A stretch of 64,000 nucleotides of DNA from Myxococcota bacterium (GTDB lineage Bacteria; Myxococcota_A; UBA9042; PHBI01; JBMYRH01), in NCBI GenBank assembly GCA_049602155.1, contig JBMYRH010000014.1, positions 99,860 through 163,859 on the forward strand. The letters are read 5' to 3'. The stretch's first letter is position 1; each line of letters begins with the position of its first letter. Under the pieces are notes generated by a model, which saw nothing but the letters and a program-made list of their open reading frames with translations, did not search any database and had not been told where the DNA came from. Shown here one piece after another: positions 13,438-43,216 of the stretch. The position numbers were made by a program, and so were the translations under genes.

Positions 13438-14826
13438 TTAGAAGCATAGATCGTTGCAGGTGAGGCCACCTTTGCGCAGGCAGCTGACCCCGACGGTCGC
13501 GGTGTCGACCTCGGTCCAGGTCAGGCTCTCGAGGTCGAGCGCCATCACGTCATCGACGACGCCGCAGTCTGTTTTGCCGCCTGAGAGCCAGACGGTTGAC
13601 TCGCTAGCGACCCAGATGTGCGCGTTTCGGCGCTCCGGCACCTCCATCGCTACGTTGGTGAAGTCCGGTGGGAAGCTACAGAAGCCGTTCGCCGGCTTGT
13701 TGTAGGTGTCCCCGAGGTCCACTTGGGTCCACGTGTGGAGATCGGGGTCAAAGGACCAGAGATCGTTTCGATTGCCCAGGAGGCCATCGTCATGCCCGCC
13801 GAAGAGGAGGTATCCGTCGTGCATCGTGTCGTGCACGAGCCCGCCCCAGAAGCGTCCATCCGGGCGCTCATTGATGGGGTCGTCTAAGCGCGTCCAGACT
13901 CCACTGTCGACGTCTAGTGTGTAGACCTCGTCATAGTACTGAGCATTGTCGAAGAAGGCCCCCTCATCGGCGCCGCCGTGGATCACCATGCGACCCCGTG
14001 CCGAGTCCCAGAGCGCGCTCTGAAACAAGCGCGGCGATGGGGTACCACTGGTCGCGAGCTCACTCCATGTCCCGTTGTTGAGGTCCAAGACCCAGGTGTC
14101 GTTAAGGGCGATATATCCCATGCCAGAGGCTGAGGCATTCCCGCCGAAGATGACCATACGGTGCGCACTGGGGTCGTAGACGACGCCGGCGTTGATGCGC
14201 GCGCTGGGGCCTGTCTCCTGGGCCACCTCGCTCCAGGTCTCGGTCGTGAGGTCGAAGGCCCACACGTCACCGTACAGCGTGTAGTTGCCGCTGGTCGCGA
14301 AGCGGTAGCGTCCGCCGAAGATCAGCATTCGATGCTCGGTGGAGTCATAGACCGCGGCGTGGCGTGTGCGGCCCGTGGGCGGTCCGCCCGAGACCATGCG
14401 CCAGAGTTGGCATTTCAAGTCGAAGATCCACGTCTCTTTTTCAAAGGTTGAGATCGGGAATGAGCACTCCACAGGGACGCCCAGAGAGCCGCCGAAGAAG
14501 ACCAATTGGTCACCGACAGGATCGAAGATCCCCGCGTGTTCACTTCGCCTCATCGGGCGCAGCCCATCTGGAGGTGGGCAGGGGTCCTCCACGGGCTCCT
14601 CGATCACGTCCTCGTCCGGTCCGGCTGTCCCATCGGCGGGAGAGCCCGCGTCTAACACGCCCGCTCCGCTCGCGTCGTCGCCACCCGTCGCTGTGACGCC
14701 AGCGTCCTCGTTGTCATCAGCGCCCTGCGCTGACGCCGTGTCGCCTTGCTCCGGAGCGGGGGCGCCGTCGCCGGAGTCGCATGCTCCGAGGCTGATGAGC
14801 AGAATAGCAAGCGCGCGGAGCTTCAT
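13438..14826 (-). CDS. Kelch-repeat beta-propeller lipoprotein
   Basis: The signal is MKLRALAILLISLGACDSG. Kelch-like blades recur, for example AGIFDPVGDQLVFFGG, RHAAVYDSTEHRMLIFGG, AGVVYDPSAHRMVIFGG and MVIHGG. An acidic, Gly-rich linker follows the signal peptide. Confidence 0.7.
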   Translation of the reverse strand: MKLRALAILLISLGACDSGDGAPAPEQGDTASAQGADDNEDAGVTATGGDDASGAGVLDAGSPADGTAGPDEDVIEEPVEDPCPPPDGLRPMRRSEHAGIFDPVGDQLVFFGGSLGVPVECSFPISTFEKETWIFDLKCQLWRMVSGGPPTGRTRHAAVYDSTEHRMLIFGGRYRFATSGNYTLYGDVWAFDLTTETWSEVAQETGPSARINAGVVYDPSAHRMVIFGGNASASGMGYIALNDTWVLDLNNGTWSELATSGTPSPRLFQSALWDSARGRMVIHGGADEGAFFDNAQYYDEVYTLDVDSGVWTRLDDPINERPDGRFWGGLVHDTMHDGYLLFGGHDDGLLGNRNDLWSFDPDLHTWTQVDLGDTYNKPANGFCSFPPDFTNVAMEVPERRNAHIWVASESTVWLSGGKTDCGVVDDVMALDLESLTWTEVDTATVGVSCLRKGGLTCNDLCF

Positions 14827-15146
14827 GGATGACCTCTCGATAATGATTTTCATTACCAGTCTGGAGTGGAGGGTGCCCTGAAAGCAATGCGTTTTCGCGT
14901 GTTGAGTCAAGCGTTTTAAGGAGTTGCCTTCTATCAAGGAGAGATCTCAGTCGACCTTTTCATCCCAAAATGCACCTGACAGGCTTGATGATGGCATGAC
15001 CGCCGGCCACAACCTTCTTCACATCAACAAGTGTAGCGTTTTTACACACGGAGCATGTCTAGATGTGGTGAATAAGTCGGCATTACCTTGGCGGGTCGTA
15101 ACCCAGAAAGGTCTGTTTTCGCATTAATCACAAATACTTGTGGTGG

Positions 15147-15162
15147 TTGGCACGGCTGTTGC
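15147..15162 (+). promoter_or_regulatory. sigma-54 (RpoN) -24/-12 promoter, TGGCACG-GCTG-TTGCT
   Basis: This is an exact match to the sigma-54 consensus TGGCACG-N4-TTGCW. It lies 35 bp upstream of the ATG at 15197, inside an AT-richer 259-bp divergent intergenic region. Confidence 0.55.
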
Positions 15163-15196
15163 TCTGTGTGCTGTCATGTCACGCACCACTTAGGAG

Positions 15197-15805
15197 TTGG
15201 CCATGACACAGGGACCTTCACTCATCTTGAGCGCGTCATTGCTCTCCCTCCTCGCCTTCGCCTCGCCGACCCTGGCGTGTATGGACCATGAGGAGATGTT
15301 CGTCCCCATGGATGAGGGGGCGCAAGCTCAGGATGAACCCGCCACGCCTCCGCCGATCTCTGAAGCGCCGGGACCTTATGACTTCCCCTGCGACACGGAT
15401 ATGGACTGCCCAGCAAGCTTAACCTGCGAACATGTGGAGTGTTGCATGGCGCGCGATTGCCTCTGCCCTCCAATGGCGTGTCTCACGTCCGATACAGGCG
15501 CTCAGGGGCGAGACTGCCTGTCGGATGACGACTGCGGCAGCGACTACAGCTGTACATTCGATGATGGAGAGGGGTGCACGGATCAGGCCGATGAAGTTTG
15601 CGTGGCGCCTCGGTTCGGTTGGTGTGACTTCGACCCCTCTGGGCCTCCCTCTGCGATGCCGTACCCCGACGATGGCGCCGACGCCCTCGACGAGGGCACG
15701 GAGGAGCTCACGGGGTGTCAGGGAGGGTCAGACACAGGCCTCCCGCTCGTCTTTGCGTTGGCGCTCTTCGCCGCGACTCTCTCCAGGCGTCCTCAGCTGA
15801 GCTGA
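15197..15805 (+). CDS. secreted Cys-rich protein with a MYXO-CTERM-like C-terminal sorting tail
   Basis: The signal is MAMTQGPSLILSASLLSLLAFASPTLAC. The body is Cys-rich and acidic. The C-terminus is GCQGGSDTGLPLVFALALFAATLSRRPQLS: a Cys, then a hydrophobic stretch, then Arg, which is the MYXO-CTERM architecture. Confidence 0.6.
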   Translation: MAMTQGPSLILSASLLSLLAFASPTLACMDHEEMFVPMDEGAQAQDEPATPPPISEAPGPYDFPCDTDMDCPASLTCEHVECCMARDCLCPPMACLTSDTGAQGRDCLSDDDCGSDYSCTFDDGEGCTDQADEVCVAPRFGWCDFDPSGPPSAMPYPDDGADALDEGTEELTGCQGGSDTGLPLVFALALFAATLSRRPQLS

Positions 15806-15900
15806 CGCCCTCATGCCCGTGCTCTCCTGGTGCCTGTCCCTCATGTCAGGAGAGCATTGAGCCGATGGCCCTCACCCCCTTGGGCCATCGGCTCTCTTTT

Positions 15901-18204
15901 TCATCGCTCGCCAAGACGCTGTCGACGACGCGCCAAAGCCGCGATGAGCAAGAGCAAGAGGGTGAGCGAGGACGTGGGTGAACTGGGGGTTGATTGACAC
16001 CCAGTGGCTTCGTCTTCGACGGGGGGCGAGGTGGTACCCGGAAGCATCCCGCCTGTCCCCCTCGTGCTCGGTTCGGCCCGCTGCTGGTCGGTCGTAGCTG
16101 CCTCTCCGCCTGTGGTATCGGCTTCAGTGGTGGGCGGCCAGGTGTCTTCTGTGGTCTCTGACGCGTCATCTGTGCTGGTCTCGGTGACGTCTTCTTCGGT
16201 CACCGTGGAGTCCTCTGTGGTCTCTGACGCGTCATCTGTGCTGGCCTCTGACCCGTCATCGGCGCCGGTGGCGTCTCCTTCGGTCGCTGTGACGTCATCC
16301 GGTGTCGGGCCAGAGGCGTCATCGGCGGTGTGGTCCGAGGTGTCTTCGACGGTGTCCTCGCCGCTCGCGTCAGGGTCGGGGGAGGGGACGGTGAGGAGGT
16401 CGGCGCCGTCACAATCTTGGTCGACCCCGTCATCAGCGGTTTCGAGCGCGTTCGGGTGGACCGAGGATGCGCTGTCGTCGCAATCGCCACTGTCAGTCAC
16501 CCATCCCTCTGAGGAGAAGCAGTCTTCTTTGGACGTCAGGGGGTCTCCGTAGCCGTCTCCGTCGCTGTCGGCGTAAAACGTGCTGGTGTTTGTGGCGTCC
16601 TCGTCGATCTGGTCATCACAATCGTCGTCCGCCAGGTTGCAGGTCTCGTCGTGTGTAGGGTGGGTCTCGAAGTCGGTGTCGTTACAGTCCGTGCCGTCAG
16701 CGACGTAGGCCGGAGGCTGAGCGCAGCTGGCGAGGCTCTGGTTGGGGTTCCCGTAGCCATCTCCATCGAGGTCCAGGTACCAAGTCTGAGCGTCCACGGC
16801 GCCTTCGTCGGTCTCGCCGTCACAGTCGTTGTCGATGCTATCGCAGCTCTCACTCGCTGCAGGGTTAATGAGGCCATTGGAGTCATCACAGTCCGCCCCG
16901 CCATAGAGTTGACTCGCGTAGCCGTCGTCGTCTGCGTCGGTCGTGATGCACGCTCCGTCTTGGCAGATCTGGCCCTGACTGGCGCAGTCATCCTCGGTCA
17001 AGAAGCTCAGGTTGATCTCGCCTGAGTTGTCTGGTGCACAGGTCTTGGCGACCTCGCCCTCACACCACGATGCGTCACCGCCGAAGATGCAGCCGTACTG
17101 GATGCAACGGGCTCCCGTCCCATAGTCCTCACAGCTTGCGCCAAAAATAGAGGCGCAGTCGAAGGCTGTCGGCTGGCCAAGGCTACAGCGGCTCATCACC
17201 GTCTCATCGGTGCACGAGTCGGTGTTGGCGCCGTTGGGGCAAAACCCTGGGTAGGCCAAGACGCAATAGGCGGTCCCTTGGCCCTCCTCACAGACCGACC
17301 CAAAGACGGTGCAGTCCCCTGACTCGGCGGCGCCGCCTTGGCAGGTGATGAGCGTGTCTCCCTGACATCGTTTGCCGTTCATCAGATCGGCGCACAGCGG
17401 GTCGACTGGGCCGGGCTGATGGATGATGGAGAGGTGATTGTGGGTGGAGCGCTCGGCGGGCTCAGTTGGGGGGCGATCGGTGACATGGACCTGATTGATC
17501 ACCAAGTCCGAGCTGCCGCCGCCGTCGAGCATCAGGCCGTTGTAGCAGCCGTGATCGTAGACGAACTGGGCAAAGTCCCAGGGCGTCCAGCCCGTGCTTG
17601 AGCCGCAGGAGTTGTCACCTTCGGCGACAAAGAGGGTCATGATCTCGCCTGTGATGTCGAGGCACACCCCAGAGCGAGGGCGCGTGCAGGAGTCGTAGCT
17701 CGGGGCCTGCAAGACGCCGTCGATCACCAATCGCTGCCCGTTTCCTCCGATCACGTTCAGCTCGTTCCAAGTCCATTGCTCCAAGACATTTTGAGGGTTG
17801 ATGCGACACTGCTTGCTGGCGTCGCAGGCCAAGAAGCTCCAGTCACCGGCCGGGTTGTTATCGTCCCAGTCTTGCGAGCCCTCGAAGTACCACCCTCCGC
17901 CGACAGAGAGCCCCTGTGGGCCGTTATAGCTGGCGCTGTCCCAGTCACCGTTAATGGTCACTGTGGATTGCTTTAAGGCGGCCTCTTGGCTCGCTGTCAG
18001 CGGTCCCTCTTCATCGCGTGTGACCCGGATAGAGATCTCGGGGACCGTCAGGTCGACCCTCGCCCAGTGGACCTCCTCTTGAAGGTTACCCTCCCCAAAC
18101 GCACACCAATCCACCCCAGGGGCGATCTCCTCCCAGCACACCTCTTCGGCGGAAGCGGGCAGAGTGAGAAATAGTAAGAGCAGGGCGCAGCCTAGCGTTC
18201 TCAT
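15901..18204 (-). CDS. secreted multidomain protein with a phosphodiester-glycosidase (NAGPA-like) domain, Cys-rich EGF-like repeats, three MopE-like putative copper-binding repeats, an acidic Thr/Glu/Asp tract and a MYXO-CTERM tail
   Basis: The internal Met at 18204 gives MRTLGCALLLLFLTLPASAEE. The N-terminal domain contains VTINGDWD and then LMLDGGGSSDLVI, which matches the phosphodiester glycosidase fold. It has three repeats of the form D-x-DGDGYG, C-x-D, then CDG/DNDCDG-x-DE, the putative metal-binding MopE type. The C-terminus is GCQSTPSSPTSSLTLLLLLIAALARRRQR, a MYXO-CTERM-like tail. Confidence 0.6.
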   Translation of the reverse strand: MRTLGCALLLLFLTLPASAEEVCWEEIAPGVDWCAFGEGNLQEEVHWARVDLTVPEISIRVTRDEEGPLTASQEAALKQSTVTINGDWDSASYNGPQGLSVGGGWYFEGSQDWDDNNPAGDWSFLACDASKQCRINPQNVLEQWTWNELNVIGGNGQRLVIDGVLQAPSYDSCTRPRSGVCLDITGEIMTLFVAEGDNSCGSSTGWTPWDFAQFVYDHGCYNGLMLDGGGSSDLVINQVHVTDRPPTEPAERSTHNHLSIIHQPGPVDPLCADLMNGKRCQGDTLITCQGGAAESGDCTVFGSVCEEGQGTAYCVLAYPGFCPNGANTDSCTDETVMSRCSLGQPTAFDCASIFGASCEDYGTGARCIQYGCIFGGDASWCEGEVAKTCAPDNSGEINLSFLTEDDCASQGQICQDGACITTDADDDGYASQLYGGADCDDSNGLINPAASESCDSIDNDCDGETDEGAVDAQTWYLDLDGDGYGNPNQSLASCAQPPAYVADGTDCNDTDFETHPTHDETCNLADDDCDDQIDEDATNTSTFYADSDGDGYGDPLTSKEDCFSSEGWVTDSGDCDDSASSVHPNALETADDGVDQDCDGADLLTVPSPDPDASGEDTVEDTSDHTADDASGPTPDDVTATEGDATGADDGSEASTDDASETTEDSTVTEEDVTETSTDDASETTEDTWPPTTEADTTGGEAATTDQQRAEPSTRGTGGMLPGTTSPPVEDEATGCQSTPSSPTSSLTLLLLLIAALARRRQRLGER
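16148..16244. repeat. exact 31-bp direct repeat with 66-bp period inside the acidic tract of the 15901..18204 gene
   Basis: The unit tctgtggtctctgacgcgtcatctgtgctgg occurs at 16148..16178 and again at 16214..16244. It encodes duplicated ...TEDSTVTEEDV... segments. Confidence 0.5.
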
Positions 18205-18294
18205 GGTGGAGCTCCCGAGAGATGTGCAGATAGTGTTCCCTACTATGCATTCGTCTCTCGACCGTGGCCATCGGCGCACTCCATACTCCCGGCC

Positions 18295-23602: not shown

Positions 23603-24061
23603 ATGCCCGCAGATGAATTGACGCGTCGCCACTTCGCGAAGCTGACCTTGGCCGCTTTGGCGGGTGCCTCAATGGGCTGCAGCAAAGAGAGCAGCCCCTC
23701 TTCGACCCCGGCCAAATCTGCCGGGCTCCTCAAGGACGTGACCTCGGAGCACTTGCTGCTCCAAGAGCCTCATGTCTGCCGCGGCTTGAACGCTTGCAAA
23801 GGGCTCGCCCGTGGTGGGAAGAACGATTGCGCGGGTCAGGGCACGTGCGCGACCTCGAAGGCTCACGGCTGTGGCGGGCGAAACGCCTGCAAGGGCCAAG
23901 GGGGCTGCGGCGCGACGCCGGGTCAGAATGACTGCAAAGGCCAGGGCAAGTGTGGTGTCCCCATCACGATGAACCCTGCTTGGGACAAGGCACGAAAGGC
24001 GCTCGATGAGCTCGCGAAGAGCCATGGGTTCGAGCTCGGTGCAGCGCCCAAGCGAGGCTAA
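23603..24061 (+). CDS. bufferin-like (DUF2282-like) Cys-rich RiPP precursor with a twin-arginine signal and a possible lipobox
   Basis: A GGAG Shine-Dalgarno sits 8 nt upstream of the ATG at 23603. The N-terminus MPADELTRRHFAKLTLAALAGASMGC has a Tat motif (T-R-R-x-F-x-K) and a Cys after the h-region. The core HVCRGLNACKGLARGGKNDCAGQGTCATSKAHGCGGRNACKGQGGCGATPGQNDCKGQGKCG is a two-fold repeat of the DUF2282-like AKAGKNDCAG motif. The stop TAA at 24059-61 abuts the GTG start of the DUF692 gene. Confidence 0.6.
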   Translation: MPADELTRRHFAKLTLAALAGASMGCSKESSPSSTPAKSAGLLKDVTSEHLLLQEPHVCRGLNACKGLARGGKNDCAGQGTCATSKAHGCGGRNACKGQGGCGATPGQNDCKGQGKCGVPITMNPAWDKARKALDELAKSHGFELGAAPKRG

Positions 24062-24976
24062 GTGACCCGCGAGACGCCCTTGGGCTTGCCTCACCTCGGG
24101 TGGGGCATTGGGCTTCGCGCTGAGCACACCTCTGCGCTCTTGGGTGAGTGGCCGGAGGTCGATTGGTTCGAGGTCATCACGGAGAACGTGATGGACTCTG
24201 GCGGGCGCGCCAGGGCTGTCGTCGAGGCCGTCGCAGCGCGCTATCCGGTGGTCTTGCATGGCGTGTCGATGAACATCGGCTCTACGGATCCGCTCGACCG
24301 TCGCTACTTGGACAGGTTGGCGGCGCTGGCGGAGGCGCTTCGACCCGCTTGGGTCTCCGATCACCTCTGCTTTACGGGCCTAGGCGGCCATAACAGCCAT
24401 GATCTCTTGCCGCTGCCCTACACCGAGGACTCCCTCGGCCACGTCGTCGCCCGGGTCCGGGATGTACAATCACACTTGGGGCGCCCTCTGGTCCTTGAGA
24501 ACCCGTCTAGCTACATCACCTTTCGGGCTTCGACGATGAGCGAGTCACGCTTCTTAGCGCGCCTCGCAGAGGAGGCTGACTGCGGGCTTCTGGTCGATCT
24601 GAACAACGTCGCAGTCAGTTGCTTTAATCATGGTTGGGACCCGAACGCTTACTTGGCGGACCTCCCCTCGGACCGCGTCGTGCAGCTGCACCTCGCGGGT
24701 CACAGTGACCTGGGCTCTCACCGGGTTGACACGCACGATGGGCTGGTCTCTGAGGAGGTCTGGGACCTCTACCGACGCTTCTATGCCCGCATCGGTGGTG
24801 CGGCGACGCTCGTCGAGTGGGACGCCGCATTGCCCCCCCTCGGCGTGCTCATCGATGAGGCGGGGCGCGCTCGGGACATCGCTCAGGGGCGCCCTGTCTC
24901 ACCTCGCGCCGACACCTCGTCCAAGGTGGCCGTGCCGCACCCGCTTCACTCCCGTGTGCGGGAGGTCGGCCCATGA
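24062..24976 (+). CDS. DUF692 family protein (MbnB/TglH/BufB-like non-heme iron enzyme, TIM-barrel)
   Basis: LGWGIGLRAEH, then VDWFEVITEN, then VVLHGVSMNIGS, then WVSDHLCFTG are all DUF692 hallmarks. The GTG start lies immediately after the upstream stop. Confidence 0.85.
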   Translation: MTRETPLGLPHLGWGIGLRAEHTSALLGEWPEVDWFEVITENVMDSGGRARAVVEAVAARYPVVLHGVSMNIGSTDPLDRRYLDRLAALAEALRPAWVSDHLCFTGLGGHNSHDLLPLPYTEDSLGHVVARVRDVQSHLGRPLVLENPSSYITFRASTMSESRFLARLAEEADCGLLVDLNNVAVSCFNHGWDPNAYLADLPSDRVVQLHLAGHSDLGSHRVDTHDGLVSEEVWDLYRRFYARIGGAATLVEWDAALPPLGVLIDEAGRARDIAQGRPVSPRADTSSKVAVPHPLHSRVREVGP

Positions 24977-25776
24977 GCGGTCAGGCCCCTTGGCGGGGGG
25001 CGCAACGTTGGCTCTTTGAGGCCGTGACAGAGGGGGCGTCCGGGGCGTCGAGTCACCTCTTTGGGACGGAGACATTCTCCGCAGAGCGAGGGCTGGAGGT
25101 GTACGCCAACGCGTACCTCGTGAGGCTGGTTGAGTGTCTGTCGGAGAGCTTCCCTGCGGTCGCACGGACGCTCGGCGAGGAGGCCTTCGCTGAGTTGGCT
25201 GTCGCGTACCTGCGGGCGTGTCCGCCTTCGGGGCCTAACCTCGGGACCCTCGGGGCGGGCTTTACGGATCATCTGGAGCGCACGCGGCCCGAGGAGGTCG
25301 GGGCTGCGGGGCGCACTTTGGTGGCGTTGGCGCGCTACGAGTGGGCCCTTGAGGTGGCCTTTGATGGGTCCGGCGCCGAGGGCATGGACGGAGTGAGCCT
25401 TGGTGACCTGAAGGCGTTGTCTCCGGAGGCATGGCTTGGGACGCGGTTGGTCGCGAACCCTGCGCTCAAGCTGCTGCGCTTGGCGGGGGCGGTCGATGAG
25501 TATTGTCACGCGGTCCGTGGCCTGGAGGCGGAGGCGGGGCTCCCAGCGTTGCCGGCGGAGGTGCCGCGCTATGTCGCCTTGAGTCGGCGATCGTTTGTGG
25601 TGCGTCGCTTGGTGTGCGAGGCCGCAGAGTTTGAGATCTTGGGGCGACTCTCTCAAGGCGCCCCGATCGGAGAAGCGCTGATGGGCTCCGGGCTAGAGGT
25701 CACGCCAGACGACGTGCAGCGCTGGTTTGCGCGATGGATGACGGAAGGGCTCTTCGTCGCGCTCGAGCGGTGCTAG
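24973..25776 (+). CDS. DUF2063 family protein (MbnC/BufC-like partner of DUF692)
   Basis: The ATG overlaps the DUF692 stop (ATGA). The N-terminal LEVYANAYLVRLVECLSESFPAVARTLGEEAFAELAVAYLRACPPSGPNLGTLGAGFTDHLE matches the DUF2063 N-domain pattern. Confidence 0.8.
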   Translation: MSGQAPWRGAQRWLFEAVTEGASGASSHLFGTETFSAERGLEVYANAYLVRLVECLSESFPAVARTLGEEAFAELAVAYLRACPPSGPNLGTLGAGFTDHLERTRPEEVGAAGRTLVALARYEWALEVAFDGSGAEGMDGVSLGDLKALSPEAWLGTRLVANPALKLLRLAGAVDEYCHAVRGLEAEAGLPALPAEVPRYVALSRRSFVVRRLVCEAAEFEILGRLSQGAPIGEALMGSGLEVTPDDVQRWFARWMTEGLFVALERC

Positions 25777-28652: not shown

Positions 28653-30014
28653 CTAAATTTTACGGTAGATGGTCCGTGTCGCGATGCCCAATAGCTGAGC
28701 CGCGAGGCGCTTGTCCCCCTTGGTAACCGCGAGGGTTTCACGGATCACCATCTCTTCAATATCGGCGAGAGGTGTTCCGATTGGGACGTTGAGGACGCGC
28801 GCCTCGGTCTCCCCTTGGCGGATGTGTGGGGGGAGCTCATCGACGTCGACAGCGTCTCCTCGGCAGAGGACGACGGCCCGCTCGATAGCGTTCTCGAGTT
28901 CACGGACGTTGCCTGGCCAGTCCCAGATCATCATCTGATCGATCGCGGCCTTGGTGATGCCGCCGATGTCTTTGTGGTTTTTCTTCGCGTACTTCTTTAA
29001 GAAGTGATGCGCTAAGAGCGGCACGTCATCTTTGCGATCACGGAGCGGCGGCAGATCGACGTGGATCACATTGAGCCGGTAAAAGAGGTCCTCGCGGAAG
29101 CGCCCAGCGCTCACCTCCTCTCGCAGGTCGGCGTTGGTCGCCGCGACCACCCTGACGTCGACCTTCACGGATCGTGACCCTCCGACGCGCTCGAACTCAC
29201 CCTCCTGAAGCGCGCGCAGCAGTTTGACCTGTAATTGCGGCGTCGTCTCTCCGATCTCATCGAGGAATAGGGTCCCGGTGTCCGCCAACTCGAAGCGCCC
29301 CTGCCGCTGTGATGTCGCGCCCGTGAAGGCGCCCTTCTCGTGACCGAAGAGCTCGGCCTCGAGCAGGGTCTCCGGGAGCGCCGCACAATTGACCGCGATG
29401 AAGGGGCGCTTCTCTCGTTGAGAGCCGCGGTGCAGTGCCCGCGCGACGAGCTCTTTCCCGGTGCCGCTCTCGCCAGTCAGGAGCACAGTGGCGCTCGATG
29501 GCGCGACTTGGCTCACGAGGTCGAGGGTCTGCCGAATGGCGATCGAGTTGCCGATGATAGAGCGGTCTCGCCGGCTGCCTTCGAGCTCCGCGCGCAACGC
29601 TTGGTTCTCTAAGACCAAGGTCTGGCGATCAAGCGCCCTCCGCACGGCCTTGACGATCTGAATGCGCTTGAAGGGTTTGGTGACGAAGTCCCACGCCCCC
29701 TCCTTCATCGCCTCGACCGCGGTCTCCACAGTGCCGAAGGCGGTCATCAGGATGAACTCGGTCTCGGGGCTGACCGTCTTCGCGGCGCGCAGGAGGTCGA
29801 GGCCGTTCATCGACGGCATCATGAGGTCGGTCAGCACGACGCTCACGCGCGTCTTGCGCAGCACGGCCAGTGCCTCTTTCCCGTCCGTGGCCGTCAGCAC
29901 CTCGACGCGTTCGCGCCGAAAGATACGAGCGAGTGACTCTAGGTTCGACGGATCGTCGTCCACGACCAACAAGGTCTGCCCAACCGCCAAGTGTACAAGT
30001 TCATCGTCACCCAT
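28653..30014 (-). CDS. sigma-54-dependent response regulator (NtrC family: receiver, AAA+ sigma-54 activator and Fis-type HTH domains)
   Basis: The receiver domain has LLVVDDDP and then [17 protein letters not shown]. The AAA+ domain has [15 protein letters not shown] and GAFTGA (the GAFTGA loop). The C-terminus has a HTH. The start is uncertain: an ATG at 30014 (MGDDELV) or an upstream TTG or ATG up to 30095. Confidence 0.85.
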
Positions 30015-30027
30015 ATCGCCCTCCAAC

Positions 30028-30104
30028 ACGTCATATGATGACGTTTGCGCCAGGTTGTCACAGCGCTTAGACATATTGTCATCCATCGTGGACAAGATGA
30101 CAAC
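30028..30104. promoter_or_regulatory. two inverted repeats at the 5' end of the regulator gene: ACGTCAT-atg-ATGACGT (30028..30044) and TTGTCATC-N13-GATGACAA (30076..30104)
   Basis: Both are perfect 7-8-bp palindromic half-sites and share a TGTCA/TGACA core. They overlap or precede the alternative starts of the sigma-54 regulator. Confidence 0.3.
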
Positions 30105-32208: not shown

Positions 32209-32384
32209 GCCTTGTTCGTAGGGTTACTTTGACAAAATGGCAACCCTGACCGACATCGGAAGGACCGCGTGTCATTTTGACGCTCAAGAGGACGCGCGCG
32301 TAAGGACTGGCTTGCCCTCCCTCACCCAAGCAATATCACGGGATTCCGACGCTTCGGCGCCTGTCACCGTTCTGCGGCATAAGT

Positions 32385-32400
32385 TGGCCCGCTTTTTGCT
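32385..32400 (+). promoter_or_regulatory. candidate sigma-54 promoter TGGCCCG-CTTT-TTGCT upstream of the gsp cluster
   Basis: The GG and GC elements have the exact -24/-12 spacing, with one mismatch to TGGCAC. It sits about 125 bp upstream of the gspC start, inside a 318-bp intergenic leader. Confidence 0.35.
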
Positions 32401-32526: not shown

Positions 32527-33555
32527 ATGAGCGCGCTCTTCAAGAAGCACTTTTGGGCGTTGAACCTGGCGGCTCTGGCGCTTTTGGCGTGGTTGACGTC
32601 CTTGACCGTCAACGAAGTGACGGGGGGCATGCTCTTCGTCGCGCCGACCCCACCGAACGTCTCTGTGGCTGAGTCAGGCCAGGCGGACATGGCCAAGCGT
32701 GGGCGCGTCCCCGGCGACGAGGACGCCCGAGATACTCTGGATGAGCGTCATGTTTTTGACCTCAACCCGATGGAGGACGACATCGCCGCGTCCGGGGGCG
32801 AGGAGACCGAGGAGAAGGAGGAGGAGCCCAAGCCTACGGGGGAAGGAGAGCTTGAGGAGAGCGACCTCCCGATCGACTTGATGGGCACCTTGGTCAGCCC
32901 CGACGCTGAGCAGTCGATGGCCACGCTGAGCATCGACGGCGAGAACAAGCTCGGCTGGGTTGGCTCGGAGTTCATGGAGGGCAAGGCCAAGATCGTCACC
33001 ATCGCGCCGCGCCACATCATCGTCCAAGAGGGCGTGGCCATGACGGTCATCAAGCTCTGGAGTGACAAGGCGAAGGCGGGGCCGAAGGGCCGCGGCAAGG
33101 GCAAGGACTCGGCGCGAGGTCGCGGTAACAACCGCAGCGCACGAGATAAGAAGGCGAACGGGAAGGCCGAGTCGAAGAGTAAGCCGGAGCGGCCGGGGCG
33201 CAAGGACTACTCCAAGGGCGTGAAGAAGACCGGCCCTTACGACTATCAGATCGACCGCGGGATGCTCGATGAGCAGCTCAAGGACTTGTCTGAGCTGGGG
33301 CGTCAGGCGCGCGTGGTCCCGAATTATCGCAACGGTAAGTACGAGGGGTTCAAGCTCGTGGGTGTCCGCCCAGGGAGCTTGTATCGGTCGATTGGTGTCC
33401 GGTCTGGCGACGTGATCAAGTCGATCAACGGAAAGCCGATCGACAGCCCCAACAAGGCATTGGATTTGTTCGAGCAGCTTAAGAACTCCTCGAGCATCAA
33501 CTTAGAGATCGAGCGGCGGGGTCAGCCCAAGCAGCTCAACTACAGCATCAAGTGA
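32527..33555 (+). CDS. gspC: type II secretion system protein C-like (N-terminal TM anchor, C-terminal PDZ)
   Basis: It has an N-terminal TM helix and a C-terminal PDZ (YEGFKLVGVRPGSLYRSIGVRSGDVIKSINGKPI). It lies immediately upstream of the secretin gene. Confidence 0.55.
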   Translation: MSALFKKHFWALNLAALALLAWLTSLTVNEVTGGMLFVAPTPPNVSVAESGQADMAKRGRVPGDEDARDTLDERHVFDLNPMEDDIAASGGEETEEKEEEPKPTGEGELEESDLPIDLMGTLVSPDAEQSMATLSIDGENKLGWVGSEFMEGKAKIVTIAPRHIIVQEGVAMTVIKLWSDKAKAGPKGRGKGKDSARGRGNNRSARDKKANGKAESKSKPERPGRKDYSKGVKKTGPYDYQIDRGMLDEQLKDLSELGRQARVVPNYRNGKYEGFKLVGVRPGSLYRSIGVRSGDVIKSINGKPIDSPNKALDLFEQLKNSSSINLEIERRGQPKQLNYSIK

Positions 33556-33604
33556 TGGCGGGAATGTCTCGTCACCTCATCCACCTGCGCGGGAGCCGCA
33601 TGGC

Positions 33605-36175
33605 ATGAGCAGAATAGCAATCACAGGGGTCGCGTTGTGCATGGTGTCGATGGTCGGTTGGCCATCGCTATCGGTCGCGCAGACACGGCCCGGCACGTTG
33701 CCATCGTCCTCGCGGGGCGACTCGGATGGTCCGGTTCGGACCAAGGCTAAGAAGGCCGGGGTCATCGACCCCTCGAGTGGCAAGAAGAAGCTCGATTTTG
33801 ACCCCAAGGACTTGGCGGGCACCTCTGGCTCTGCAGAGGATAAGCTCACCAAGGACGCTGAGGACGTCATTGAGTGGAAGACGAATTTTGAGAAGGGAAT
33901 CAAGTGCAAGAAGCTCCCGCTGAACACGAAGATTCGCCTGGACTTTAACGACATCGCTCTGGGCGATCTGACCAAGTTCATCTCATGCATCACCGAGCAG
34001 AATTTCATCCTCGCTGGTGGGGCAAATAAGAGCGCGACGGTCTCTATCTTGAGCCCGAAGCCGGTCACCGCGTATGAGGCTTACAAGGCGTACTTGAGCA
34101 CGCTAGAGGCCAACTCGCTGACCATCGTGCCCAACGGTAACTTCCTTGAGATCGTGCCGAGCGGCGAAGCCAAGCAGCAGGGCGCTCCGATCTTCGGCCC
34201 GAAGAAGAAGGGGCCGAATGACGACCGTATGGTCACTCGGCTGATTCAGCTTGAGCACATCCAGGGGCAGGAGATCTTGCCGGTCATCGAGAAGTTCAAG
34301 ACCAAGTCGGCCGACCTGACCATCTACGCACCGACCAACACGCTCATCATGACGGACACTGGGACGAACATCCGTCGTATCTTGGCGCTCATCAAGGAGC
34401 TCGATGTCCCGGTGGGCAAGGAGAAGATCTGGATCCGCCCGATTCAGTATGCCGACGCCTCCGAGATGCTCAGCATGCTTCAGAACCTCTTTCAAGCGAG
34501 CGGTGGGGGCCGCAGTGCCTCCGCCTCCTCACGCCCTTCGAGCTCCAAGTCAAAGCGCAAGGGGGCCAAGGCGAAGTCGAGCCCCTCAAGTGTCGTTGGG
34601 GCGTCCGGTGACGTGACGAGCATCGAGATCACCAAGATGCTCTCCGATGAGCGCACCAACTCCATCATCTTTGTGGCCAGCCGCTCCTCCTACCTCAAAG
34701 TTGATCGGCTCTTGCGCAAGATCGATGTGCCGATCCCCGGCGAGGGGCAGATCCACATCCACAGCCTCGAGAACGCCGACGCAGAGGAGATCGCTCAGAC
34801 GCTCTCGAGCCTCGCCTCATCCAAGGGCGGCAAGGGCAAGCGCAGCTCGAAGAGCAAGAAGAAGAAGAAGAGCAAGTCCAAGAGTGGCAGCTCTGGAGGC
34901 GCGCTGCTTCAAGGCGACGTGAAGATCACCGCCTACGAGCCGACGAACTCCCTCGTGATCGAGTCGTCCCTCAAGGATTACCTCTCCCTCCAGAGGGTCA
35001 TTAAGCAGCTCGATGTGCGCCGCAAGCAGGTCTACGTCGAGGCGATCATCATGGAGATCAGCCAGAACAAGCAGAAGGACGTCGGGTTCAGTGGCTCGGG
35101 TGGCGTCCCGGACGTCGATATCGCGGGTGAGCAGGTCCCCCTCCTCTTTGGCGTGGGTGGCCTCGGCCTCGATGTCCAAGGTGCGCTCTCGACGTTGACC
35201 GCCGGCGGCGGCGCCATCGGCATGCAAGGCCCGATGGTGGACCTCTCTGGCGGCGTCTCGGGCTCGGGTGACTCGGCATCGACTGGGGGCAGCTTCTCGA
35301 TCCCCGCCTTTGGCTTCACGCTCCAGGCGCTCCAGACGACGAGCAACGTCAACGTGCTGTCTACGCCGCACATCCTCACCGTTGAGAACGAAGAGGCCGA
35401 GATTCAGGTCGGAAAGCGTCAGCCCTACCGAAACCAGAGCATGGGTGGCCTGGGTAACCTCTCAAGCCTCGCGGGCTTGGCGGGTGGCGCGGGCGCGAGC
35501 GCCCTCGGCAGCTTGGGGGGCCTCGGCGGCTTAGGTGGCCTCGGCAGCCAGGTTCAGTACGTCGACGTGGACCTGACGTTGAAGATCAAGCCCCAGGTCA
35601 ACGCGAGCGACTTTGTACGGCTTGAGATCGAGCAGAACATTGACGACATCGAGGGCTTCTTCGCGGAAGCGCCGATCACGTCCAAGCGGAAGATCTCCAA
35701 CATCGTCGTGGTGCGTGACGGTCAACCCGTCGTCATCGGTGGCTTGATGCGAGACAGCGAGACCGAGTCCGTGGAGAAGGTGCCCTTCTTGGGTGACATC
35801 CCGCTCTTGGGCCTGCTCTTCCGCAAGACGGCGACGACGGTCGAGAAGCGCAACTTGCTCCTGATCATCATCCCTCATGTCATCAAAGACCCGAGCGACT
35901 TGAAGCAGATCCACAACCAGCGGAAGACCGAATTCCGAGAGTTCAGTCGCATGATGGCGATGCGTAAGAAGGAGTTCGAGGGCGAGATGGACTACCGCAA
36001 GAAGGTGGGCCTGCTTCAGGACATCCATGTGACGGTCAACCGCGCCCGCCGTGAGCGTGAACTCAACGAGCAGTCCATCTTTGAGTCGACCGAGTTTGAC
36101 TCGGTGGGGCCGCCAGAGACGCACGACATTGAGTACGACCCGTATGAGGCGACTGAGGATAAGGGGGACGACTAA
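33605..36175 (+). CDS. gspD: type II secretion system secretin GspD
   Basis: An N0 domain (KIRLDFNDIALGDLTKFISCITEQNFIL) and a secretin core (VLSTPHILTVENEEAEIQVGKRQPY, then VVVRDGQPVVIGGLMRDSETESVEKVPFLGDIPLLGLLF). It also carries unusual Lys/Ser-rich low-complexity inserts. Confidence 0.9.
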   Translation: MSRIAITGVALCMVSMVGWPSLSVAQTRPGTLPSSSRGDSDGPVRTKAKKAGVIDPSSGKKKLDFDPKDLAGTSGSAEDKLTKDAEDVIEWKTNFEKGIKCKKLPLNTKIRLDFNDIALGDLTKFISCITEQNFILAGGANKSATVSILSPKPVTAYEAYKAYLSTLEANSLTIVPNGNFLEIVPSGEAKQQGAPIFGPKKKGPNDDRMVTRLIQLEHIQGQEILPVIEKFKTKSADLTIYAPTNTLIMTDTGTNIRRILALIKELDVPVGKEKIWIRPIQYADASEMLSMLQNLFQASGGGRSASASSRPSSSKSKRKGAKAKSSPSSVVGASGDVTSIEITKMLSDERTNSIIFVASRSSYLKVDRLLRKIDVPIPGEGQIHIHSLENADAEEIAQTLSSLASSKGGKGKRSSKSKKKKKSKSKSGSSGGALLQGDVKITAYEPTNSLVIESSLKDYLSLQRVIKQLDVRRKQVYVEAIIMEISQNKQKDVGFSGSGGVPDVDIAGEQVPLLFGVGGLGLDVQGALSTLTAGGGAIGMQGPMVDLSGGVSGSGDSASTGGSFSIPAFGFTLQALQTTSNVNVLSTPHILTVENEEAEIQVGKRQPYRNQSMGGLGNLSSLAGLAGGAGASALGSLGGLGGLGGLGSQVQYVDVDLTLKIKPQVNASDFVRLEIEQNIDDIEGFFAEAPITSKRKISNIVVVRDGQPVVIGGLMRDSETESVEKVPFLGDIPLLGLLFRKTATTVEKRNLLLIIIPHVIKDPSDLKQIHNQRKTEFREFSRMMAMRKKEFEGEMDYRKKVGLLQDIHVTVNRARRERELNEQSIFESTEFDSVGPPETHDIEYDPYEATEDKGDD

Positions 36176-37903
36176 GTGACCCTCGCCTCCACGCCTATGT
36201 TTGGCCCACGACGACTTGGAGAGATCCTCGTCGACATGGGGGCCGTCTCTCCGGAGTCGGTAGAGAGCGCCCTTGAGCTTCAGGAGGAGAAGGGCGGCCG
36301 ACTCGGTGACCTCTTGGTGGACATGGAGGCGATCACCGCCGATGACGTCGCGAAGGCGTTGGCCGAGCAGCTGGACCTCGAGTACGACGATGAGCTCGAG
36401 GCCGACGAGATCGATCCTCAGCTCGTCAGCCGCATGTCGCTCTCCTACGTGCGCGCCAACGAGATGCTCCCGCTGGTCGCAGACGAGACGACGGTCCGCT
36501 TGGCGGTGGTCGATCCGCTGAACACCTTCGCGATCGATGACATCCGCGTGCTGCTCAACCGGGAGGTCGAGCTCGTCGTGGTCGCACGCGAGACACTGAG
36601 CGCCGCGATGCACCGCGTCTTCGATCGCCGCGCTGGGGCGGATCAGGTCGTCGGCGACCTCCAGGAAGAAGATCTGGGGAGCCTGGCGCATGACCTGGAC
36701 GACCAGGCCAAAGACATCCTCGATGAGGACGATGAGGCGCCGATCATTCGCTTGGTGAACTCGATCTTGAATCAGGCGATCAAAGAGCGCACGAGCGACA
36801 TCCACATCGAGCCCTACGAGCGGGACATCGTCATCCGGTTCCGGAAAGACGGCGTCCTCAAAGAGATCGTGCGCGCACCGAAGCGCTTTCAAGCGTCGAT
36901 TGCCAGCCGAATCAAGATCATGGGCAACCTGAACATCGCTGAGAAGCGGCTCCCCCAGGACGGCCGTATCCGCATCAAGATCGCAGGTCGTGACGTCGAC
37001 TTGCGCCTCTCGACGGTCCCGACGACCTTCGGTGAGCGCATCGTCTTGCGTATCCTCGACAAGTCCTCAGTGGTGCTCGACCTCGAGTCCCTGGGCTTCT
37101 TGCAGCACAACCTCAACACCATCACGGACTTGATCGAGCGTCCCCATGGGATCGTCTTGGTCACAGGGCCTACGGGCTCTGGTAAGACGACGACGCTCTA
37201 CGCGGCGCTGTCGCGGATCAACACGCCGGATCGGAACATCCTCACGGTTGAAGATCCCGTCGAGTACCAGCTCCAGGGCATCGGTCAGATGCAGGTCAAT
37301 CGGAAGATCGACTTCACGTTCGCCCGCGGCCTCCGCGCTATCCTGCGTCAGGATCCCGATGTCGTGCTCATCGGTGAGATTCGTGACCTTGAGACCGCTG
37401 AGAACGCGATCCAGGCCGCCCTGACGGGCCACCTCGTCTTCGCGACGCTCCACACTAACGATGCGCCGAGCGCGTTCACCCGGCTGACCGACATGGGCGT
37501 CGAGCCCTTCCTCTCGGCCTCTTCGGTGATCGCGGTGATGGCGCAGCGCCTCGTGCGCACGGTCTGTAAAGAGTGCCGCGAGCCCTACACGCCGCTTCCG
37601 GCCGAGCTGAAGAAGCTGGGCCTTGAGCCGTCAGACGTGAAGCCTGAGCACACGATCTACCGGGCGGTCGGTTGCCCAGCGTGCTTCGACAGCGGCTACG
37701 CCGGTCGATGGGGCATCCATGAGCTCCTGCAAGTGGATGACGACATTCGCTCACTGGTGATGCAGAACACAGCGTCTTCGATCATCAAGCGTCGCGCGGT
37801 CGAGCTCGGCATGCACACCCTTCGAGACGATGGGGTGGCCAAGGTGCTGAGCGGTCACACGACCATGGATGAGATTATGCGCGTCACTGCTGAAGACCGC
37901 TAG
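36176..37903 (+). CDS. gspE: type II secretion ATPase GspE
   Basis: The GTG start abuts the gspD stop. It has a GspE N-domain, a Walker A (VTGPTGSGKTTTLYAAL), Asp and His boxes, and a tetracysteine motif (CKEC...CPAC). Confidence 0.92.
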   Translation: MTLASTPMFGPRRLGEILVDMGAVSPESVESALELQEEKGGRLGDLLVDMEAITADDVAKALAEQLDLEYDDELEADEIDPQLVSRMSLSYVRANEMLPLVADETTVRLAVVDPLNTFAIDDIRVLLNREVELVVVARETLSAAMHRVFDRRAGADQVVGDLQEEDLGSLAHDLDDQAKDILDEDDEAPIIRLVNSILNQAIKERTSDIHIEPYERDIVIRFRKDGVLKEIVRAPKRFQASIASRIKIMGNLNIAEKRLPQDGRIRIKIAGRDVDLRLSTVPTTFGERIVLRILDKSSVVLDLESLGFLQHNLNTITDLIERPHGIVLVTGPTGSGKTTTLYAALSRINTPDRNILTVEDPVEYQLQGIGQMQVNRKIDFTFARGLRAILRQDPDVVLIGEIRDLETAENAIQAALTGHLVFATLHTNDAPSAFTRLTDMGVEPFLSASSVIAVMAQRLVRTVCKECREPYTPLPAELKKLGLEPSDVKPEHTIYRAVGCPACFDSGYAGRWGIHELLQVDDDIRSLVMQNTASSIIKRRAVELGMHTLRDDGVAKVLSGHTTMDEIMRVTAEDR

Positions 37904-37914
37904 GGGAGCCCAAG

Positions 37915-39177
37915 GTGCCGATCTACGAGTACAAGGGGCTCAACGCGAAGGGCAAGCAGGCCAATGGTGTCTTGGACGCCGACAGCCCGCGTGACCTGAA
38001 GGACCGACTGAAGCGTCAGGGCATCTACATGTCCGAGTACGTGGAGACGGACCGGGGCGGAAAGCGCCGCAAGGTTGGCGGTGAGCAGACTGGCTCGAAA
38101 GAGGTCAGCTTCAGCGACATGATGCGCCGCATCACGCTGCTGGAGGTCGCGGAGTTGACGCGTCAGCTCGCGACGCTGAGCCGCGCAGGGATCCCTCTCG
38201 TGGAGTCCTTAGCGGCCTTGACCGATGAGCACGACAACCCGAAATTGAAGCGGGTCATGAGCCAGGTGAAGCGCGCGGTCAGTGAGGGCTCGTCCCTCGC
38301 CAACGCCTTGCAGGCTCACCCGACGGTCTTCCCGCCGATCTACGTCAACATGGTCAACGCGGGTGAGTCCTCCGGTAACCTCGACATCGTCTTCGATCGC
38401 CTCGCGACGCTGACAGAGTCCCAGGTGCGCCTCCGAGGCAAGCTGATGGGGGCGCTGATGTACCCCATCATCATGGTGTTTTTGGGCGGGGTGATCATCA
38501 CGTTGATGATGCTCTTTGTCGTCCCGAAGATGGCCGAGATGTTCGAAGAGATGGGGGCGCAGTTGCCGACTGTGACCCGCATCCTGATCACCTTCAGTGA
38601 GTTCATCAGTGATTGGTGGTTGTTGCTCTTCCTAGCGTTCGGGGGCGGTGTCACCGCCTTTAACCGCTGGCGGGTCAGTGAGAATGGTAAGCCGACTTGG
38701 GATGCCTTCACGCTGCGTGTCCCGATCTTCGGCCCGCTGATCCGCATGCTGAACGTGGCCCGATTTGCGCGCACGCTCTCCACACTGCTGGCGAGTGGCG
38801 TGCCGATCTTGACGGCCATGAGCATCGTCGAGTCGATCTTGAACAACCACGTGTTGGCCTCGGTGATCGAGCAGGCCCGTGAGGCGGTGAAAGAGGGCAG
38901 CGCGGTCGCGGACACCTTGAGGCAGTCCGGAGAGTTTCCGTCGATGGTGTGCCACATGGTGGCCATCGGAGAGCGCTCTGGTGAGCTGGAGTCGATGCTC
39001 GGGAACGTCGCCGACAGCTATGAAGCGCATGTGGACTCGAAGGTGCAGGCGCTCACGAGCGTCCTGGAGCCCGTGATGATCGTGGTCATGGGCGGGGCCG
39101 TGGCGTTCCTCGTCTTCGCCATCTTGCAGCCCATGATGAATATGAATGAGCTCTTCGCCAGTGGCGGGCTCGGTTAG
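37915..39177 (+). CDS. gspF: type II secretion inner-membrane platform protein GspF
   Basis: MPIYEYKGLNAKGKQANGVLDADSPRDLKDRLKRQGI, followed by a duplicated GspF domain with 3 TM helices. Confidence 0.9.
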   Translation: MPIYEYKGLNAKGKQANGVLDADSPRDLKDRLKRQGIYMSEYVETDRGGKRRKVGGEQTGSKEVSFSDMMRRITLLEVAELTRQLATLSRAGIPLVESLAALTDEHDNPKLKRVMSQVKRAVSEGSSLANALQAHPTVFPPIYVNMVNAGESSGNLDIVFDRLATLTESQVRLRGKLMGALMYPIIMVFLGGVIITLMMLFVVPKMAEMFEEMGAQLPTVTRILITFSEFISDWWLLLFLAFGGGVTAFNRWRVSENGKPTWDAFTLRVPIFGPLIRMLNVARFARTLSTLLASGVPILTAMSIVESILNNHVLASVIEQAREAVKEGSAVADTLRQSGEFPSMVCHMVAIGERSGELESMLGNVADSYEAHVDSKVQALTSVLEPVMIVVMGGAVAFLVFAILQPMMNMNELFASGGLG

Positions 39178-39206
39178 TTTTTTTTGGACCCTGAGGAGGG
39201 AGCCCA

Positions 39207-39593
39207 GTGAACGGAATCAATCGGATTTCAAACGTGCGCGGTATGACGTTGCTTGAGATCATGGTGGTGATCGCCATCATCGGCATCTTGTCGTCAGCAA
39301 TCGGTGTCTCGGTCGTCACTTATATGGAGAAGGCCAAGGTCGACGCGTCGAAGGCGCAGCTGCGGCAGGTCGCGAATGCGGTCGAGCTCTACGCTGTAGA
39401 GAACGATTGGCCGACGGACCTCCGTGAGGTCTTGGACGCCAAGATGATCAAAGAGAAGCAGCTGGTCGATCCCTGGAAGCAGGACCTGCTCTACTCGTAC
39501 CCAGCGAGTCGCGGTAGCGACAACCGCTACGACCTCTGCTCAAAGGGTCCGGACAAAGTCGAAGGCAACGACGACGACGTCTGCAACGACTGA
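39207..39593 (+). CDS. gspG: major pseudopilin GspG
   Basis: The prepilin leader is ...RG followed by the cleavage site and MTLLEIMVVIAIIGIL, with E at +5. The size and the GspG-like C-terminus fit (DRYDLCSKGPD). Confidence 0.85.
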   Translation: MNGINRISNVRGMTLLEIMVVIAIIGILSSAIGVSVVTYMEKAKVDASKAQLRQVANAVELYAVENDWPTDLREVLDAKMIKEKQLVDPWKQDLLYSYPASRGSDNRYDLCSKGPDKVEGNDDDVCND

Positions 39594-39595
39594 GC

Positions 39596-43207: not shown

Positions 43208-43216
43208 GAGGAACCC

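Follow-up and report, generated by a model that had tools for sequence, protein, structure and literature searches.

A predicted sigma-54 promoter conserved upstream of an orphan family of cysteine-rich secreted proteins in uncultured Myxococcota

Among the described systems, those closest to the locus analyzed here are the classical sigma-54 promoters, such as glnAp2 of Escherichia coli, the nifH promoter, which is assisted by integration host factor (IHF), and Pu. In E. coli glnAp2, the NtrC sites are located at -140 and -108. The subject of the present analysis is a predicted sigma-54 (RpoN) promoter at positions 15148-15163 (forward strand) of a 64,000-nucleotide stretch of contig JBMYRH010000014.1 (hereafter, the window, to which all coordinates refer), which comes from a metagenome-assembled genome (MAG) of an uncultured marine member of the Myxococcota; the promoter faces a gene for a cysteine-rich (Cys-rich) secreted protein (15203-15805, + strand). 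The likeness to the classical promoters extends from the GG/GC consensus to conserved upstream blocks near -145 and -108, with an IHF-like site lying between, and to the presence in the genome of an enhancer-binding protein (EBP) that contains the GAFTGA motif; in particular, the two blocks combined with the putative bend site resemble the standard enhancer layout. The differences include the sequences of the blocks, which are similar neither to the NtrC site nor to the motif detected upstream of the type II secretion (gsp) genes in the same window; the position of the IHF-like site, which abuts the -24 element; and the host, an uncultured marine lineage represented by a MAG.

Sigma-54 is essential in Myxococcus xanthus, and the Myxococcota are unusually rich in EBPs (PMC12316311), so that a sigma-54 promoter is to be expected at a locus of this kind; it is an ordinary type of switch for the phylum and does not overturn the current understanding. 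Earlier work has argued that sigma-54 plays a role in controlling what lies at the exterior of the cell (PMC3162934), and a 2025 survey of Myxococcia based on a position-specific scoring matrix found that COGs that belong to type II secretion systems (T2SS) are enriched among the predicted sigma-54 targets (PLoS One, PMC12316311). The loci considered here resemble those of the survey in that a sigma-54 site precedes the gspC-N operon, both in the window and in related MAGs; beyond the survey, the present analysis points to a candidate paired enhancer motif, TGNCA-N3-TGNCR, with the two copies about 41 nt apart, and to a syntenic, putatively dedicated NtrC-type activator in an uncultured clade, neither of which we found described. 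In M. xanthus, MYXO-CTERM proteins reach the cell surface via myxosortase and the T2SS (PMC11980579); the functional connection between such cargo and the secretion machinery, which had been proposed for this window, is therefore established biology rather than a new inference. The features shared with the M. xanthus pathway are the signal peptide, the Cys of the G-C motif, the hydrophobic helix, the Arg cluster and the presence of T2SS genes in the window; the Cys-rich protein differs in that its tail scores below the cut-off of the MYXO-CTERM model TIGR03901, and no CPBP or myxosortase (MrtX) hit was obtained among the open reading frames of the window that were scanned.

The PEP-CTERM/PrsR system (Haft et al. 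2006, PMC1569441) is similar in that it, too, involves single-gene operons that encode a C-terminal sorting signal and are preceded by a long non-coding region with a sigma-54 motif and an upstream motif of the 17-nt class. Furthermore, one of the conserved blocks upstream of the Cys-rich gene (block A) ends in TTTACA, like PrsR motif 1 (PMC1569441). The sorting signal of the target differs from PEP-CTERM in being MYXO-CTERM-like, with an invariant Cys; block A is separated from the promoter by about 100 nt, compared to 32-92 nt for PrsR motif 1 (PMC1569441); the EBP encoded in the window scores 423.8 bits against the PrsR model (TIGR02915), the cut-off of which is 502.6, and is linked to gsp; and there is no evidence here that many cargo genes share a box. 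On these counts, the locus is not a member of the PEP-CTERM/PrsR class, although this class is its closest conceptual precedent.

The promoter of the cysteine-rich gene

The promoter core, TGGCACGGCTGTTGCT, reads TGGCACG-GCTG-TTGCT on the + strand (15148-15163) and matches the RpoN consensus TGGCACG-N4-TTGCW at 12 of the 12 constrained positions; the -24 GG occupies 15149-15150 and the -12 GC occupies 15161-15162, with canonical spacing. The complete match had been recognized in the sequence-only reading that the present analysis followed up, with the site placed one base off, at 15147-15162. This is the only exact match to TGGCAC-N5-TTGC in the window, where shuffled sequences lead one to expect 0.12 (at least one match was found in 10 of the 100 shuffles); the expectation for the 12-position motif calculated from the base frequencies is 0.019. 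In a looser scan of the window, with GG and GC obligatory and the score counted out of 12, this site was the only one to score 12/12, and a single 11/12 site was found at 32385, before gspC; the four sites that scored 10/12 (27536, 27780, 55300 and 58878) were dismissed as being about as numerous as expected by chance (5.5). The core is non-coding, is oriented towards the Cys-rich gene, ends 33 nt before the TTG at 15197 and 39 nt before the ATG at 15203, and lies in an intergenic region with a GC content of 0.49, compared to 0.63 for the whole window. A simple consensus scan of 14700-15950 detected no sigma-70-like promoter, and an Rfam scan of both strands of 14700-15400 yielded nothing at E <= 1.

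The identification of the promoter is supported by its conservation across the protein family. Upstream DNA was retrieved for six distinct lineages in addition to the window, and the sequences were compared in register, anchored on TGGCAC, with gaps disallowed. The encoded proteins range in identity to the window protein from 81% (L001), through 55% (L002-5), 54% (L006-7) and 39% (L070), to 34% (L073) and 33% (L071-2); the relatives originate from the TARA, HAWL and ZHAN samplings of the ocean. The motif TGGCAC(G/A)-N4-TTGCT is present in all 7 lineages (the window, L001, L003, L006, L070, L071 and L073). Within it, TGGCAC and GTTGCT are invariant, and the spacer varies (GCTG, CGGG, GGGG, AGGG or CCCG); the flanks of the core have diverged, and the predicted melting region, from -10 to -1, is free to vary across the lineages. 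The distance between the -12 C and the ATG is 41 nt in six of the seven lineages and 43 nt in the remaining one. This pattern of conserved and variable positions points to sigma-54 recognition rather than to a generally conserved stretch, and the presence of the same promoter in all seven retrieved lineages, down to 33% protein identity, argues against an origin by chance. Judging from these comparisons, the predicted promoter is real and evolutionarily conserved, far beyond what chance would produce, and the claim of a genuine sigma-54-type promoter for the Cys-rich gene is borne out by the variable spacer and the fixed distance to the ATG. The gene order, with a Kelch-repeat gene on one side of the Cys-rich gene and a gene for a NAGPA-MopE MYXO-CTERM protein on the other, is also kept, even in distant relatives.

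Upstream of the core, three further elements recur in the same register. The first is a putative IHF-binding site, TCACAAATACTTG (15128-15140, + strand), which ends 8 nt before TGGCAC. When compared to the consensus WATCARNNNNTTR, this 13-mer matches at 6 to 9 of the 9 positions in all 7 lineages and is perfect in L071 (AATCAGAGTCTTA) and L073 (TATCAACCACTTG), with CA and TTG invariant. The second element, block B (GTGGTGAATAAGTCG, 15065-15079, + strand), extends from about -109 to -95 relative to the predicted transcription start and is a candidate activator-binding site; its core, GTGGTGA(A/T)nAA, is located 83 nt upstream of TGGCAC in the window, L001, L003, L070 and L073, and is displaced and degenerate in L071. 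No second copy of block B was found elsewhere in the window. The third element, block A (AAGTGTAGCGTTTTTACACAC, 15029-15049, + strand), contains a GTGT-N9-ACAC dyad, spans about -145 to -125 and might be a second activator-binding site; AAGTG-N8-TTACAC (AAGTG...TTTACAC) is found in the same register in the window, L001, L003, L071 and L073.

Downstream of the core, the -12 rule predicts a transcription start at about 15173-15176, in a stretch (15172-15189, + strand) that also includes the conserved opening of the leader, CATGTCACGCACCAC. This block of 15 nt, with which the predicted transcript begins (CATGTCACGCAYCAC, 15175-15189), is invariant among the relatives that are at least 54% identical in protein sequence (54-81%); the distant relatives lack it, and the family as a whole shares only G.CATG, at the predicted start. 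The block is followed by a Shine-Dalgarno sequence, AGGAG (15192-15196, + strand). In the sequence-only reading, translation had been assigned to the TTG at 15197, with the promoter 35 bp upstream. However, AGGAG lies 6 nt upstream of the ATG at 15203, and GGAG-N6-ATG is kept in all members of the family, so that this ATG is the better supported start. Another in-frame ATG, at 15176, was rejected: in the window, this frame is closed by TAG, and no Shine-Dalgarno sequence precedes it; the frame is open in three orthologs.

Taken together, these observations make it highly probable (roughly 0.88) that a functional sigma-54 (-24/-12) promoter at 15148-15163 serves the single-gene operon 15203-15805. 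The motif and the way in which it is conserved, together with the fixed architecture and the synteny, are observations; sigma-54 dependence, the start site, the binding of an activator and of IHF, and the sorting of the protein are inferred. Under the mechanism proposed here on the basis of what is established for sigma-54 promoters, the sigma-54 RNA polymerase would bind the GG (15149-15150) and the GC (15161-15162) and would be held there as a closed complex; a postulated AAA+ activator would bind the blocks near -108 (15065-15079) and -145 (15029-15049); the IHF-like site (15128-15140) would bend the DNA so as to bring the activator to the polymerase, with ATP used for promoter opening; and transcription would proceed from about 15173-15176, so that the leader would be about 28 nt long and would carry AGGAG 6 nt upstream of the ATG at 15203. 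In favor of this reading, a canonical GAFTGA-containing EBP is encoded in the window.

Several points weigh against this interpretation. The start site and the RpoN dependence are predictions for an uncultured host; the rpoN and ihf genes are outside the window, so that their presence is taken from phylum-level knowledge; and the activator of the target promoter is postulated. The IHF-like site is centered at about -40, nearer to the promoter than is typical, and blocks A and B might act on the promoter of the divergent Kelch gene, in place of or in addition to this one. The promoter model gives no account of the invariance of the leader block 15175-15189 in close relatives. Finally, with regard to the product, the tail of the Cys-rich protein, taken as an isolated 41-aa segment, scores 16.1 bits (E = 0.011) with TIGR03901, below the cut-off of 20.

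The gsp operon, its probable activator and the competing explanations

The alternative that survives best, although we consider it improbable, is a single sigma-54 regulon, in which the EBP encoded at 28653-30014, about 13 kb away, would switch on both the gene for the Cys-rich cargo and the gsp operon. This was the scenario put forward in the sequence-only reading, and the individual components on which it was built are indeed there. The EBP gene (28653-30014, or to 30095, - strand) encodes an NtrC-type sigma-54 activator that consists of REC, AAA+ and HTH_8 domains, with the Walker A motif GESGTGK and the GAFTGA motif. The type II secretion cluster, gspC to gspN (32527-47456, + strand), includes GspC (GspC_delta, 258 bits with a cut-off of 150) and GspD, E, F, G, J, K, L, M and N; the GspN-like protein (45891-47456, + strand) terminates in an uninterrupted stretch of about 40 Asp/Glu residues. 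The second sigma-54-like site, TGGCCCGCTTTTTGCT (32385-32400, + strand), contains 1 mismatch and is located 127 nt before gspC.

Taken alone, the 32385 site is unremarkable, given that 0.56 one-mismatch sites are expected per window. It is conserved nonetheless. The close orthologs carry TTGGC(C/G)C-N-TTGCTT at the same place before gspC, and the more distant ones carry TGGCA(C/T)-N5-TTGC(T/A) 30-60 nt before gspC. A set of 30 gsp loci was taken from MAGs in GTDB that belong to uncultured Myxococcota and Bradymonadia (GspC 34-63% identical); a sigma-54 site with a score of at least 10/12 is present on the coding strand within 400 nt upstream in 19 of them, against a background of 0.011 per 400 nt. 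As far as such conservation can tell, the gspC site is a genuine sigma-54 promoter. Upstream of this site is a pair of motifs, TGACAAAATGGCA (32230-32242) and TGTCATTTTGACG (32270-32282), both on the + strand, that we regard as a candidate gsp enhancer (32230-32282). In 22/30 gsp loci, TGNCA-N3-TGNCR occurs in two or more copies, which are spaced by about 41 nt and lie 100-150 nt upstream of the promoter (background, 0.05 per 400 nt); apart from this pair, the window contains no strict match.

A shared regulon is favored by the conservation that backs both promoters as sigma-54 sites, by the requirement of M. xanthus MYXO-CTERM proteins for the T2SS (PMC11980579), and by the precedent of the PEP-CTERM cargo genes, which have in common a sigma-54 promoter together with an activator box for PrsR (PMC1569441). 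However, the TGNCA-N3-TGNCR motif is missing from the intergenic region of the target, even when 1 mismatch is allowed, and the target promoter has other conserved upstream blocks, so that a shared activator is unsupported. The EBP gene tracks gspC rather than the Cys-rich gene: in 23 of the 30 loci, a full-length ortholog (58-78% identical) is encoded upstream of gspC and no more than 4 kb away, which places the EBP with the gsp operon (5 of the 7 loci without an EBP ortholog have less than 2.2 kb of upstream sequence), and no EBP is part of the synteny of the island that contains the Cys-rich gene. In addition, the bona fide MYXO-CTERM neighbor, the only other gene of this class in the window (15901-18279), has no sigma-54 site upstream. 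The EBP is therefore most likely, as judged from gene order and motif distribution, the activator of the gsp promoter (32385-32400) and not of the Cys-rich gene. The two promoters would have a common sigma factor, and nothing indicates a common activator; the regulatory link between cargo and machinery, claimed as a regulon, is reduced to a shared sigma factor at most, which says little given the many EBPs in Myxococcota (PMC12316311). A loose match to the gsp enhancer, TGACAACCTGGCG, was also noticed at 30048-30060 (- strand), just upstream of the probable start of the EBP gene (30014); the EBP could be autoregulated via this site, but about 4 such loose matches per window are expected by chance.

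Less probable than a shared regulon is the possibility that the conserved sequence running from TGGCAC up to the ATG acts chiefly as an RNA leader element, for translational control or in the form of a stability hairpin, transcribed from further upstream, with the likeness to a -24/-12 promoter being secondary. Such an element would fit the invariance of the 15 nt that follow the predicted start in close relatives and the potential of the 5' end of the leader to pair with the AUG region (UGUCAUGUCA with UGGCCAUGACA). However, the leader folds no better than shuffled sequences (z = -0.57), and compensatory changes are present at none of the pairs, so that a leader hairpin sequestering the AUG was not adopted; the Rfam scan was empty as well. 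Moreover, the distant relatives lose the leader block yet keep the -24/-12 elements, and what is conserved and what varies correspond exactly to the pattern of sigma-54 recognition. A scan of metagenomes for CATGTCACGCAYCAC-N3-GGAG produced 20 hits, all of them unrelated chance matches without a promoter; the leader is thus not a widespread element.

The least probable explanation is that the motif arose by chance or is a silent sigma-54 binding site, with the Cys-rich gene transcribed from another promoter: many sigma-54 binding sites of E. coli are reported to be intragenic or non-productive (PMC4591121), and single exact matches do arise by chance at the low rate given by the shuffles, but the exact motif is kept in seven of seven diverged lineages, in which the spacer varies freely and the start codon stays at a fixed distance; the site lies between genes in the correct orientation, and no alternative sigma-70-like promoter was detected.

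The sigma-54 promoter of the Cys-rich gene thus stands as a high-confidence comparative case, with an enhancer/IHF-like architecture, in a lineage without a cultured member, and could serve as a reference or training case for promoter prediction in Myxococcota. The analysis also led to corrections of the start of the Cys-rich gene and of the assignment of the nearby activator. A by-product that may be more useful concerns the gsp operon, which in a wide range of MAGs of uncultured Myxococcota and Bradymonadia is accompanied by a sigma-54 promoter, paired enhancer motifs and a syntenic response regulator of the NtrC type; this suggests that type II secretion, and hence MYXO-CTERM surface display, is signal-gated in these bacteria. 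The most useful new details are the conserved promoter architecture of the orphan Cys-rich family and the conserved candidate gsp enhancer with its probable dedicated activator in uncultured Myxococcota.

The cysteine-rich protein and the neighboring genes

The gene at 15203-15805 encodes an acidic secreted protein of 200 aa and is considered to be monocistronic because the next gene is convergent. A hypothetical protein with the identical sequence is recorded at NCBI for a 'Myxococcota bacterium' MAG. The family is small in public data, with 17 clusters when sequences are grouped at 90% identity and 9 representatives when they are grouped at 50%, all from metagenomes or MAGs; the existence of 17 clusters with invariant cysteines indicates that the gene is real. 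A scan of the GTDB genomes with a protein pattern detected no relative of the Cys-rich family, and neither Pfam nor NCBIfam contains a family for the full protein. The mature part has an isoelectric point of 4.05 and contains 15 Cys, 36 Asp+Glu and 3 Lys+Arg residues. By inspection, the N-terminus is a Sec signal peptide, MTQGPSLILSASLLSLLAFASPTLAC, with the predicted cut before M; the end of the signal peptide, L-A-C-M-(D/E), is invariant in the family and is mostly followed by H (LAC, then M(D/E)H; aa 24-29 of the protein, within 15203-15290). Depending on the cleavage site, the mature protein would start with C-M-E-H or M-E-H; in the latter case, the His would be at position 3, as in amino-terminal Cu/Ni-binding (ATCUN-type) motifs. 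The layout of the signal peptide might also be read as an atypical lipobox.

The C-terminal tail, TGCQGGSDTGLPLVFALALFAATLSRRPQLS (aa 170-200, nt 15710-15802), has the three-part MYXO-CTERM layout as defined in PMC11980579, namely, a signature with an invariant Cys, a hydrophobic helix and an Arg-rich end; Cys172, G171 and the Arg residues are retained across the family, and the TGCQ signature is common to this tail and that of the bona fide MYXO-CTERM neighbor. The description of the product as a MYXO-CTERM protein in the sequence-only reading therefore stands as far as the layout is concerned and falls short in the TIGR03901 score: the isolated tail remains below the cut-off, and the full-length protein gives no hit. 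The protein may be sorted to the surface as a MYXO-CTERM-like protein. The AlphaFold model has a mean pLDDT of 61, with a core, residues 60-120, at about 75; a Foldseek search of the PDB found nothing significant, the best matches (E = 0.69) being Cys-rich domains of the Draxin/Dickkopf/colipase type, and no fold was assigned.

On the other side of the intergenic region, the divergent gene (13438-14826, - strand) encodes a lipoprotein with Kelch repeats, assigned to the Kelch families and syntenic in L001-L004 and the P0137 contig. It aligns with its orthologs from the ATG at 14826, which opens a lipoprotein signal peptide, MKLRALAILLISLGAC, so that the intergenic region is more likely 376 bp long (14827-15202) than the 259 bp given previously; its description as AT-richer holds. 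A Fur-box-like 19-bp palindrome, GGTAATGAAAATCATTATC (14839-14857, - strand), is located 12 nt upstream of the Kelch start codon and matches the E. coli consensus GATAATGATAATCATTATC at 17 of the 19 positions (0.00 expected by chance). L001 and L003 retain the palindrome, each with 2 mismatches, and the distant relative L071 lacks it; the palindrome suggests that the Kelch gene, divergent from the sigma-54 gene, is under iron control. Also on the Kelch side is a strongly conserved block (14882-14928) with two 22-bp direct repeats (..GCGTTTT..), AGCAATGCGTTTT and AGTCAAGCGTTTT. On the minus strand, this block contains TTGACT-N17-TTGCTT, with a non-canonical -10-like hexamer, and L071 has TTGACA as the equivalent of TTGACT; the TTGACT is probably the -35 element of the Kelch gene.

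The convergent neighbor of the Cys-rich gene (15901-18279, - strand) encodes a NAGPA protein with MopE repeats and a bona fide MYXO-CTERM tail (TIGR03901, 24.9 bits with a cut-off of 20). A speculative and rather unlikely scenario is that the Kelch lipoprotein with its Fur box, the sigma-54-gated acidic Cys-rich surface protein with the mature N-terminus C/M-(D/E)-H, and the NAGPA/MopE MYXO-CTERM protein form a conserved metal-responsive cell-surface module that is specific to an uncultured marine clade of Myxococcota; the Cys-rich component would have an activator of its own, and a separate conserved EBP-enhancer pair would gate the exporting T2SS.

Further downstream, the window contains a cluster for a ribosomally synthesized and post-translationally modified peptide of the bufferin type (23603-25776, + strand). 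This cluster consists of a precursor-like, Cys-rich open reading frame with repeated C-x-G-x-N-x-C-K-G-Q-G-x-C motifs (23603-24061), the MNIO maturase BufB (24062-24976; NF050167, 342 bits with a cut-off of 310) and an HvfC/DUF2063 partner (24973-25776). The bufferin cluster and the MopE-type repeats at 15901-18279, taken as a pair, hint at a copper theme in this region.

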